Shown: positions 45,430 through 46,946 of the stretch, piece by piece | Numbering within the stretch: position 1 is the first letter of the stretch | Layout: each line of letters opens with the position of its first letter | Assembly: GCA_050247515.1 (NCBI GenBank) | Contig: JBFWUB010000011.1 | Coordinates: forward strand, 1-64,000 | Source of the DNA: Ramlibacter sp. | GTDB taxonomy: Bacteria; Pseudomonadota; Gammaproteobacteria; Burkholderiales; Burkholderiaceae_C | Direction of reading: 5' to 3' | Length of the DNA stretch: 64,000 nucleotides | Notes under the pieces: generated by a model | Seen by the model: only the letters and a program-made list of their open reading frames with translations | Database searches by the model: none | What the model was told of the DNA's origin: nothing | Position numbers and translations under genes: made by a program

Positions 45430-45625
45430 CCATGCAGGAGAGCGGGCGGCACCAGCCACCCCACCGAAGGCGCAAACTCCCATACACGCTCAGGTTGTCG
45501 TACTGCATGCACTGAAAAGCCGTCTGGAGAGCAGCCCCCACGGGGCTCACCGAAGGAGCAAGCCGCACGGAAGGTACCGCGCGGTGAATCTCTCAGGTAC
45601 CAAGGACAGGGGGAGCGGCACCACA
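45430..45625 (+). ncRNA. Tandem glycine riboswitch (two aptamers) in the leader of the dadA-like gene.
   Basis: Aptamer 1 has GGAGAG (45436), CACCGAAGGCGCAA (45461-45474) and CTCAGG (45488). Aptamer 2 has CTGGAGAG (45523), CACCGAAGGAGCAA (45547-45560) and CTCAGGTACCAAGGACAG (45591-45608). These are the conserved glycine-riboswitch core blocks, in the correct order and on the correct strand. Confidence 0.75.
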
Positions 45626-45641
45626 CACAAGGTGTTCTCCC

Positions 45642-46946
45642 ATGCGAGTAATCGTTCTCGGCGCCGGCCTGCTCGGCGTTTCTTCCGCGTATTTCCTCCA
45701 GCAACTCGGCCACGACGTGACCGTCATTGACCGCCAGGCCACGCCCGGCGCCGAGACCAGCTTTGCCAACGGCGGGCAAATCTCGGTGAGCCATGCCGAG
45801 CCCTGGGCCAACCCGGGCGCGCCGCTCAAGCTGCTGCAGTGGCTGGGCCAGGAAGATGCGCCGCTGCTGTTCCGCCTGCGCGCCGACGCACGCCAGTGGC
45901 TGTGGGGCCTGCAGTTCCTGCGTGAATGCACACCGGCGCGCACGCGCCACAACATCCGCCAGATCGTGAACCTGGGCACCTACAGCCGGGCCGTGCTGCA
46001 GCAGCTGCGCCGCGACGCCGGCCTGCAGTACAGCCAGCGCACCCAGGGCATCCTGCACTTCTATACCAGCGCGAAAGAGTTCGACGCCGCGCTGGAGCCC
46101 GCCGCACAGATGCGCGCCCTGGGCTGCGAGCGCCAGGTGGTGAGCGCCGACGAGGCCGTACGGCTGGAGCCCGCGCTGCGCCACATCCGGCCCCAGCTGG
46201 CCGGCGCCACCTACACCGCGGAAGATGAATCCGGCGACGCCAACGCGTTTGCGCGCGGCCTGGCGCAACGCTGCGAAGCCGCGGGCGTGAAGTTCCTGAT
46301 GGGCCACCACATCACCGCACTGCGCGAAGTGGCCGGGCAGATCGACCATGTGGAGCTGACCGACGCCGAGGGCCGCTACCAGCGCCTGAAGGCCGACGCC
46401 TATGTGCTGGCCATGGGCGCGTTCAGCCCGCTGCTGGCCGCACCGCTGGGCCTGCGCCTGCCCATCTACCCGGCCAAGGGCTATTCGGTGACCATGCCGG
46501 TGAAAGACGCGGCCATGGCGCACCAGGTCAGCCTGACCGATGACGAGTTCAAGCTGGTGTTCTCGCGCCTGACGGGCGCGCAGGGTGACCGCCTGCGCAT
46601 TGCCGGCACGGCCGAGCTGAACGGCTACGACCGTGACCTGAACCGCGTGCGCTGCGAGGCCATCGTGCGACGGGTGGAACAGCTGTTCCCCGGTGCGGGC
46701 GACACCACGCAGGCGCAGTTCTGGAGCGGCCTGCGTCCGGCCACGCCGAGCAACGTGCCCATCATCGGCCAGAGCAAGCTGCCCAACCTCTACTTGAACA
46801 CGGGCCACGGCACGCTGGGCTGGACGCATGCCTGCGGCTCGGGCAAGTCGATCGCGCGGATCGTGACGGGGCTCGCTCCCGAAGTGGATTTTGCTTTTGC
46901 GGGTAAATCAGAACACGCTGCTGGGCACAGAATCCAGCACGCTTGA
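45642..46946 (+). CDS. dadA: FAD-dependent amino-acid oxidoreductase (D-amino-acid dehydrogenase / glycine oxidase-like).
   Basis: MRVIVLGAGLLGVSSAYFL dinucleotide-binding N-terminus, 434 aa. Confidence 0.8.
   Translation: MRVIVLGAGLLGVSSAYFLQQLGHDVTVIDRQATPGAETSFANGGQISVSHAEPWANPGAPLKLLQWLGQEDAPLLFRLRADARQWLWGLQFLRECTPARTRHNIRQIVNLGTYSRAVLQQLRRDAGLQYSQRTQGILHFYTSAKEFDAALEPAAQMRALGCERQVVSADEAVRLEPALRHIRPQLAGATYTAEDESGDANAFARGLAQRCEAAGVKFLMGHHITALREVAGQIDHVELTDAEGRYQRLKADAYVLAMGAFSPLLAAPLGLRLPIYPAKGYSVTMPVKDAAMAHQVSLTDDEFKLVFSRLTGAQGDRLRIAGTAELNGYDRDLNRVRCEAIVRRVEQLFPGAGDTTQAQFWSGLRPATPSNVPIIGQSKLPNLYLNTGHGTLGWTHACGSGKSIARIVTGLAPEVDFAFAGKSEHAAGHRIQHA

Follow-up and report, generated by a model that had tools for sequence, protein, structure and literature searches.

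We analyzed a 64,000-nucleotide (nt) stretch of a Ramlibacter sp. contig (JBFWUB010000011.1, positions 1 to 64,000; the window) in which a tandem glycine riboswitch lies directly upstream of a gene of the dadA family. We consider it likely that this leader is an ON-type tandem switch that releases translation of the monocistronic dadA-family gene, and that the encoded enzyme most likely oxidizes glycine to glyoxylate. Judged by its sequence, the leader is a genuine, standard ON-type tandem glycine riboswitch, with glycine as the presumed ligand. All parts of the system are on the forward (+) strand and comprise aptamer 1 (45432-45508), a 10-nt linker (45509-45518), aptamer 2 (45519-45614), a single hairpin expression platform (45611-45641), and an open reading frame of 434 amino acids (45642-46946) that begins with the ATG at 45642.

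A scan of the whole window against Rfam matched aptamer 2 to the glycine riboswitch family RF00504 at 45514-45619 (+) with 56.8 bits (E 4.7e-9), and a scan of region 45415-45522 alone matched aptamer 1 to the same family at 45425-45515 (+) with 46.7 bits. The gathering score of RF00504 is 32 bits, which each aptamer exceeded. The apparent absence of aptamer 1 from the scans of the whole window and of a 301-nt region was an artefact. When matches of the same clan overlap, the lower-scoring one is discarded, and the matches to aptamers 1 and 2 overlap by 2 nt; aptamer 1 was dropped for this reason. An earlier reading of this DNA (the sequence-only reading) had claimed a tandem glycine riboswitch and named an RF00504 covariance-model scan as a check; with both aptamers above threshold, that claim stands. 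It had also placed the end of the aptamers about 20 nt before the ATG, and the gap from aptamer 2 to the ATG was 22 nt.

The arrangement is conserved. A search of a genome collection with the window protein returned 80 loci with orthologs at 79-97% identity, from Ramlibacter, Variovorax, Acidovorax, Rhodoferax, Polaromonas, Rubrivivax, Ideonella, and relatives (Comamonadaceae and other Burkholderiales). The tandem leader lay directly upstream of the ortholog in 70 of these loci; 2 others were cut off by contig ends, and 8 truly had none. The same tandem leader before 70 of 80 orthologs dismisses a chance origin of the riboswitch-dadA arrangement. The genes flanking dadA are unrelated to it (a DUF1800/DUF1501 pair upstream, convergent DUF535 and FIST genes downstream) and are syntenic in close relatives only.

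RNAalifold analysis of the 70 distinct leaders recovered the P1/P2/P3/P3a(/P3b) architecture, with covariation in P1, P2, P3, and P3b. Compensatory changes were found in 8 of 17 pairs of aptamer 1, where P2 covaried strongly, and in 15 of 28 pairs of aptamer 2, so that the P1-P3a fold expected by the sequence-only reading was recovered in both. In aptamer 1, P1 (45432-45437/45503-45508) is followed by the J1/2 element GAGAG (45438-45442), P2 (45444-45450/45455-45461), and a P3/P3a region with CCGAAGGCGCAA (45464-45475), a short P3 loop, and CUCAGG (45489-45494). Aptamer 2 consists of P1 (45519-45526/45607-45614), GGAGAG (45526-45531), P2 (45533-45538/45542-45547), CCGAAGGAGCAA (45550-45561), a P3b hairpin, CUCUCAGG (45590-45597), and AAGGACAG (45602-45609). 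An alternative register of the aptamer 2 P1 (CUG/CAG, a GGGAG bulge, and GCCG/CGGC) was compared with the Rfam register, and all of the positions concerned were invariant.

The sequence-only reading had assigned the full set of conserved blocks to both aptamers. GGAGAG, CACCGAAGG(C/A)GCAA, and CTCAGG were indeed present in both, but AAGGACAG was found in aptamer 2 only; the atypical J3/1 of aptamer 1, UUGUCGUA, carries GUUGUCGUAC (45494-45503) in its place. The same pattern held across the 70 leaders, in which the pocket blocks GGAGAG, CCGAAGGnGCAA, and CUCAGG were invariant in both aptamers and GGAC was confined to aptamer 2. Aptamer 1 has GUAC in place of GGAC, a deviation kept in all relatives. 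The missing block raises the possibility that aptamer 1 is a degenerate, ghost-like scaffold that does not bind glycine, leaving the element to act as a singlet. In keeping with this idea, aptamer 1 lacks AAGGAC, its J3/1 varies among relatives (GUCCCGUAC, CACCACCAC, or inserted hairpins), and its RF00504 score is below that of aptamer 2. However, that score is well over the gathering score, GGAGAG, CCGAAGGCGCAA, and CGCUCAGG are invariant in aptamer 1 of all 70 leaders while its P2 covaries, and aptamer 1 of published ON switches is more conserved than aptamer 2 and dominates binding (PMC7161355). We regard a singlet as very improbable and favor a tandem in which both aptamers would bind glycine.

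The inserted hairpins are of variable length, occur in approximately 25 of the 70 leaders between CUCAGGU and GUACUGC of the aptamer 1 J3/1, and are missing from the window. Examples come from Variovorax, Rhodoferax, Polaromonas, and other loci (L007 1445-1577, L008, L021, L044, and L060). Many of the long spacers also hold a conserved small palindrome or hairpin, GCUAU-N5-9-AUAGC.

The putative switching sequence is a short G-rich segment, GGGAGCGGC (45611-45619), which overlaps the 3' strand of the aptamer 2 P1 and forms the 5' arm of the platform hairpin. Its GGGAG (45611-45615) is complementary over 5 base pairs to CUCCC (45477-45481) in the P3 loop of aptamer 1. CUCCC was invariant in the 70 leaders, as was GGACAG(G/A)GGGAGCGGC after aptamer 2 in all of them. 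This contact was at one point considered as a novel inter-aptamer contact and was rejected as such, being the published P5 pseudoknot (PMC6239177, PMC7161355), with CUCCC as the 5' strand and GGGAG as the 3' strand. P5 was proposed by Kladwang et al. in 2012, and Torgerson et al. reported it in 85% of type-1 singlets and 79% of tandems (PMC6239177, PMC7161355). According to these papers, ON switches typically have P5, which cannot coexist with the helix of the expression platform (PMC7161355, PMC6239177); its experimental validation in tandem riboswitches is still outstanding according to PMC7161355.

Covariation of P5 was assessed in 120 metagenome loci, retrieved by a pattern that leaves the aptamer 1 loop free. 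The mean longest Watson-Crick run between loop and tail was 5.22, compared to 4.36 +/- 0.11 for permuted combinations, and 0 of 2000 permutations reached 5.22. Covarying loop/tail pairs in these loci included GCCCC/GGGGC, ACCCC/GGGGU, ACCCA/UGGGU, GCCCU/AGGGC, UGCCC/GGGCA, UACUC/GAGUA, and CCGCCCCC/GGGGGCGG.

The expression platform of the window (45611-45641) is a hairpin that pairs GGGAG.CGGCACC with GGUGUU.CUCCC, contains the Shine-Dalgarno (SD)-like sequence AAGGUG (45629-45634), and stops one nucleotide short of the AUG. Its minimum free energy (MFE) was -16.8 kcal/mol (z = -2.35; 4 of 200 shuffled sequences were equally stable). Without 45607-45619, the remainder folded at only -3.2 kcal/mol. 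Of the MFE structures of 69 distinct orthologous leaders, 78% had GGGAG paired to the 25 nt that precede the start codon, compared to 37% for shuffled sequences. The GGGAGCGGC segment can pair with either 45477-45481 (P5) or 45637-45641 (the sequestor), and the two helices are mutually exclusive.

These data suggest how the switch would operate. At low glycine, GGGAGCGGC (45611-45619) would pair with GGUGUUCUCCC (45631-45641), burying AAGGUG and abutting the AUG, and translation would be blocked. With glycine bound, the aptamer 2 P1 together with P5 (45477-45481/45611-45615) would capture the GGGAGCGGC segment. Capture of this anti-ribosome-binding-site strand would leave the ribosome-binding site free, and DadA would be made. 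The product would then oxidize glycine to glyoxylate (and ammonia), which would serve detoxification or assimilation alongside the glycine cleavage system. Glycine-ON control at translation initiation is thus the behavior that we infer from this model of the leader. The sequence-only reading had glycine induce the gene, and this ON-type logic holds, with P5 and the sequestor sharing the GGGAG strand as its putative mechanism.

Several observations weigh against this interpretation of the switch. The unconstrained MFE of the whole leader was no better than that of shuffled sequences (z = -0.76), as is usually the case for riboswitches that have tertiary structure. AAGGUG is only weakly SD-like. 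Within the dadA lineage neither the P5 strands nor the tail vary, and the covariation that backs P5 here is all at the level of the riboswitch family. The locus is known here from sequence alone. Lastly, expression platforms vary among the relatives, many of which have spacers of approximately 110 nt and terminator-like stems, which means that control may act at different levels in different lineages.

The variation among platforms raises the alternative that control is exerted mainly on transcription, by Rho-dependent or intrinsic attenuation, with the 45611-45641 hairpin as a pause or attenuator. In many orthologous leaders (e.g., L003, L004, L015, and L019), a long spacer does contain GC stems with U-rich runs behind them, and the induction of Cupriavidus necator dadA6, a glycine-induced gene discussed below, was measured at the transcript level. 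In the window, however, no U-tract follows the hairpin, and a terminator scan of the leader found no intrinsic terminator. The 3' arm of the hairpin includes the SD-like element and ends next to the AUG, which is a classical translational design, and proteobacterial glycine riboswitches are reported to favor translational platforms (PMC12452182). We therefore consider attenuation distinctly unlikely for the window and favor translational control by the sequestor.

The start of the transcript was considered together with the question of a kink-turn. A hexamer of the form TAnnnT lies 6-9 nt from GCAGGAGAG of the aptamer 1 P1 in nearly all orthologous leaders; in the window it is TAGAAT (45420-45425), a -10-like sequence 6 nt upstream of P1 and part of a putative promoter. 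Its variants (TACAAT, TATACT, and TAGACT) are compatible with a -10 box and incompatible with a K-turn G.A motif. The promoter assignment remains putative because a simple sigma-70 scan of the leader gave no full -35/-10 site. These data suggest that the transcript may start at or just before the aptamer 1 P1 (predicted at about 45431-45433), which would leave no space for a leader-linker P0 or kink-turn. No K-turn motif (5' leader plus linker with tandem G.A pairs) is conserved in the linker or in the sequence upstream of P1, and the linker itself, GCACUGAAAA in the window, was unconserved in the leader alignment. A leader-linker P0/kink-turn was rejected on these grounds, the upstream hexamer behaving like a -10 box. 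The kink-turn is optional in glycine riboswitches, being present in 28-39% of tandems and about a third of ON-type tandems (PMC7161355).

The product of the controlled gene is a DadA-subfamily flavoenzyme, in agreement with the DadA-like 434-amino-acid gene of the sequence-only reading. It matched Pfam DAO (PF01266) with E 6.4e-70 and NCBIfam NF001933 (D-amino acid dehydrogenase subfamily, PRK00711) with 484.6 bits (cut-off, 383 bits), residues 1-417 corresponding to positions 1-408 of the 429-position profile. The exact protein sequence has been deposited as MGE0330807.1, 'MAG: D-amino acid dehydrogenase [Ramlibacter sp.]'. The protein is 38% identical to Escherichia coli DadA over its full length. 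It stayed below the cut-off of the equivalog NF009074 (PRK12409), with 328.6 bits compared to 494. Its closest solved structures by sequence, among Protein Data Bank (PDB) sequences, were glycine oxidases, at only E 1e-16. The last 10-13 or so residues of DadA are unconserved in most relatives, where matches end at residues 419-431, and the closest relatives match further. The 3' end of dadA overlaps that of the convergent DUF535 gene (46908-47999, minus strand) by 39 nt (46908-46946).

Three lines of evidence point to glycine as the substrate: the switch effector is glycine, a riboswitch-controlled DadA-like gene of Aminobacter precedes the gene for malate synthase G, and dadA6 of C. necator encodes an enzyme for the same reaction. 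Expression of C. necator dadA6 was induced approximately 200-fold on glycine, and in an E. coli biosensor the enzyme formed glyoxylate from glycine (Claassens et al. 2020, bioRxiv 10.1101/2020.03.11.987487). The same study reported that dadA6 enables growth of an E. coli glyoxylate auxotroph on glycine and that C. necator cannot grow on glycine without it (bioRxiv 10.1101/2020.03.11.987487). In strain H16, dadA6 is flanked by primers TGGAAGGCTACCCCTACTTC and ATAGAAACTCAGCGGCTGGC (PMC11879842). The Aminobacter case came from a blastn search of plasmids with the leader, which matched only Aminobacter and Azospirillum. On plasmid pUSP1 of Aminobacter sp. MSH1 (L082, 3407-7079), an RF00504 tandem leader, a DadA-like gene, and malate synthase G form one apparent operon, which would be a plasmid-borne route from glycine through glyoxylate to malate. 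By analogy with these systems, the window enzyme most likely oxidizes glycine to glyoxylate.

The substrate assignment has counterpoints of its own. By NCBIfam, the protein belongs to the general D-amino-acid dehydrogenase subfamily, and it scored 122.7 bits with the ThiO glycine-oxidase model (TIGR02352), whose cut-off is 250.8. No glyoxylate-utilization gene adjoins dadA in the window, and no glyoxylate-pathway gene was found beside dadA in the 80 orthologous loci. Orthology of the window DadA to C. necator DadA6 would have to be assumed, and the transfer of function from DadA6 is by inference. A separate protein search with the window enzyme returned only relatives at 84% identity or more and no named Cupriavidus or Burkholderia ortholog; a protein search with a 69%-identical ortholog (L145) also gave no named Cupriavidus or Burkholderia match, and tblastn of plasmids with the window protein returned only paralogs at 46% identity or less. 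The link to DadA6 was drawn from the single riboswitch-controlled dadA listed for Ralstonia eutropha H16 (Sun 2013) together with Claassens 2020.

These counterpoints bear on a second scenario, in which the riboswitch is as described but its gene encodes a D-amino-acid dehydrogenase of broad specificity, similar to DadA of E. coli or Pseudomonas, glycine being only the inducing signal. Glycine could then indicate, for example, turnover of peptidoglycan or amino acids, or glycine toxicity, rather than being the main substrate. The NF001933 match, the low ThiO score, and the full-length identity to E. coli DadA agree with this scenario, and the database names are all 'D-amino acid dehydrogenase'. 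However, no racemase partner (dadX/alr) was found beside dadA, the downstream gene being the convergent DUF535, unlike the dadAX operon of E. coli. Riboswitch effectors are normally a substrate or product of the controlled pathway, and the Aminobacter DadA-like gene shares an operon with a glyoxylate-consuming malate synthase G. DadA6 of C. necator, likewise annotated as a D-amino acid dehydrogenase, oxidizes glycine in vivo. We consider a broad-specificity enzyme unlikely and retain glycine as the probable substrate.

Further observations were made at the orthologous loci. The 8 orthologs without the leader (L033, L036, L040, L047, L069, L071, L078, and L079; Leptothrix, Rubrivivax, Betaproteobacteria, and Burkholderiales by name) were 81-83% identical to the window protein, and no glycine riboswitch was found anywhere in their loci. 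In L033, an operon runs from an M20 peptidase gene through an MFS transporter gene to dadA, which lies 18 nt behind the transporter gene. A gene for an M20/M25/M40-family peptidase/amidohydrolase lies immediately upstream of the riboswitch-dadA unit (at approximately 2500-3720) in about 24 loci, examples being L013, L028, L030, L032, L034, L038, L041, L045, L054, L063, L065, L067, L073, L074, and L076, and also in the metagenome locus L202. Such a gene may encode an N-acyl-glycine or hippurate-type hydrolase that releases glycine, which would fit. Four loci from Variovorax and relatives, L010 (2112-2315 and 3694-3913), L018, L026, and L053, carry two successive units of tandem riboswitch and DAO gene. 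The upstream paralog (e.g., 2418-3674 in L018; 418 amino acids) is 45% identical to the window DadA; it has lost the ETSFANGGQIS segment that is conserved behind the Rossmann fold and, at 222 bits, falls below the NF001933 cut-off of 383. These double units echo the 'dadA; dadA' entry for Burkholderia xenovorans in Sun et al. 2013 (PMC3766115). The Azospirillum match, on a 2-Mb plasmid of A. brasilense (L081, 3493-4426), is a tandem glycine riboswitch that precedes a PF03458 'Gly_transporter' gene; an IS240-type transposase comes next. This leader has the aptamer 1 loop CCUCCCAU and the tail GGACAGGGGGAG as in the window, and the tail could also pair, as there, with a sequence directly ahead of the AUG (CUCUCCC).

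The sequence-only reading had called this gene a less common regulon member. This description was accurate because, in the metagenome sample, DAO-family genes lay behind only 7 of 111 short-P3 glycine riboswitches, 2 of the window type and 5 of the Aminobacter type. The major published contexts of glycine riboswitches are gcvT, gcvP, and alanine symporters (PMC7161355). The supplement of the RegPrecise-based study of Sun et al. 2013 (PMC3766115, supplementary file 1) lists dadA 14 times under the glycine riboswitch. The listed genomes include B. xenovorans (two copies), B. vietnamiensis, R. eutropha H16 and JMP134, Cupriavidus taiwanensis, C. metallidurans, Paracoccus denitrificans, Loktanella, and Oceanicola, Rhodobacterales among them (PMC3766115). 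Papers on the gene contexts of glycine riboswitches did not name DadA, and papers on DadA6 did not mention a riboswitch. We found no open-access paper that explicitly discusses the pairing; the Sun 2013 supplement alone lists it.

The riboswitch-dadA pairing is therefore already catalogued, and the window is an additional member built from known parts (an RF00504 tandem, P5, and a ribosome-binding-site sequestor). It adds little that is new beyond a clean, conserved instance of a minority member of the glycine riboswitch regulon. It does connect the RegPrecise listing with the C. necator DadA6 route used in reductive-glycine-pathway engineering, two literatures without mutual citations, and it lends support to a new annotation of this DadA lineage as a probable glycine-oxidizing enzyme that feeds glyoxylate. 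More tentatively, with chances that we put slightly short of even, the Comamonadaceae/Burkholderiales DadA lineage under this riboswitch could be a dedicated glycine dehydrogenase with an unusually compact leader, devoid of a K-turn leader, in which P5 directly gates translation in competition with a second CUCCC beside the AUG. If so, it would be a minimal natural system in which the 31-nt sequestor uses the 5-nt 3' strand of P5 as its anti-ribosome-binding-site strand. Possible uses of the short translational platform are as a compact part inducible by glycine and for experimental tests of the P5 pseudoknot.

Elsewhere in the window, Rfam matched Bcj11 (Burkholderia small RNA 11) at 40171-40292 (minus strand; 70.4 bits), wholly inside the coding region of a gene for a 640-amino-acid MFS-acyltransferase fusion (39034-40956, minus strand). 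This match is probably conserved coding sequence and not a separate small RNA. A borderline match to the L17-Actino-Proteobacteria ribosomal-protein leader was found at 1363-1411 (minus strand; 40.3 bits, gathering score 34.9, E 0.027), with a tRNA gene downstream on the same strand (847-920).

Compared to known ON-type tandem riboswitches (RF00504; Mandal 2004, Kladwang 2012, Torgerson 2018/2020), the window element is alike in its P1-P2-P3/P3a junction aptamers, short linker, and single platform. It is also alike in the C-rich P3 loop of aptamer 1 that complements a G-rich stretch after the aptamer 2 P1, a stretch shared with the alternative helix, and in the control of a presumed glycine-catabolic gene. 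It differs in having a dadA-type gene rather than gcvT/gcvP, in lacking GGAC in the aptamer 1 J3/1, and in having no evident leader-linker P0/kink-turn, with the -10-like box abutting P1. The platform of Bacillus subtilis gcvT is a terminator, whereas that of the window is a 31-nt sequestor of the ribosome-binding site.

The RegPrecise dadA regulons (PMC3766115) share with the window a glycine riboswitch followed by a monocistronic dadA, in Beta- and Alphaproteobacteria, and the two riboswitch-dadA genes of B. xenovorans have a counterpart in the Variovorax loci found here. Comamonadaceae and Ramlibacter are outside the genome set of Sun et al. 2013, and the dadA genes listed there are candidate orthologs of that in the window. 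E. coli dadAX encodes a homologous flavoenzyme, but dadA is co-transcribed there with the alanine racemase gene dadX, has no riboswitch, and acts on D-alanine as its physiological substrate. The Aminobacter pUSP1 operon is like the window in having an RF00504 tandem directly upstream of a DAO-family dehydrogenase, and its partner malate synthase G consumes glyoxylate. That operon is bicistronic, however, its enzyme is 36% identical to the window DadA and belongs to the NF009074 equivalog (728 bits), and its P5 strands are CCCCA/UGGGG compared to CUCCC/GGGAG. Lastly, C. necator DadA6 is strongly induced by glycine and converts glycine to glyoxylate in vivo, the role proposed here for the window enzyme; C. 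necator couples DadA6 to the glycerate pathway, whereas no glycerate-pathway genes were seen in the window.

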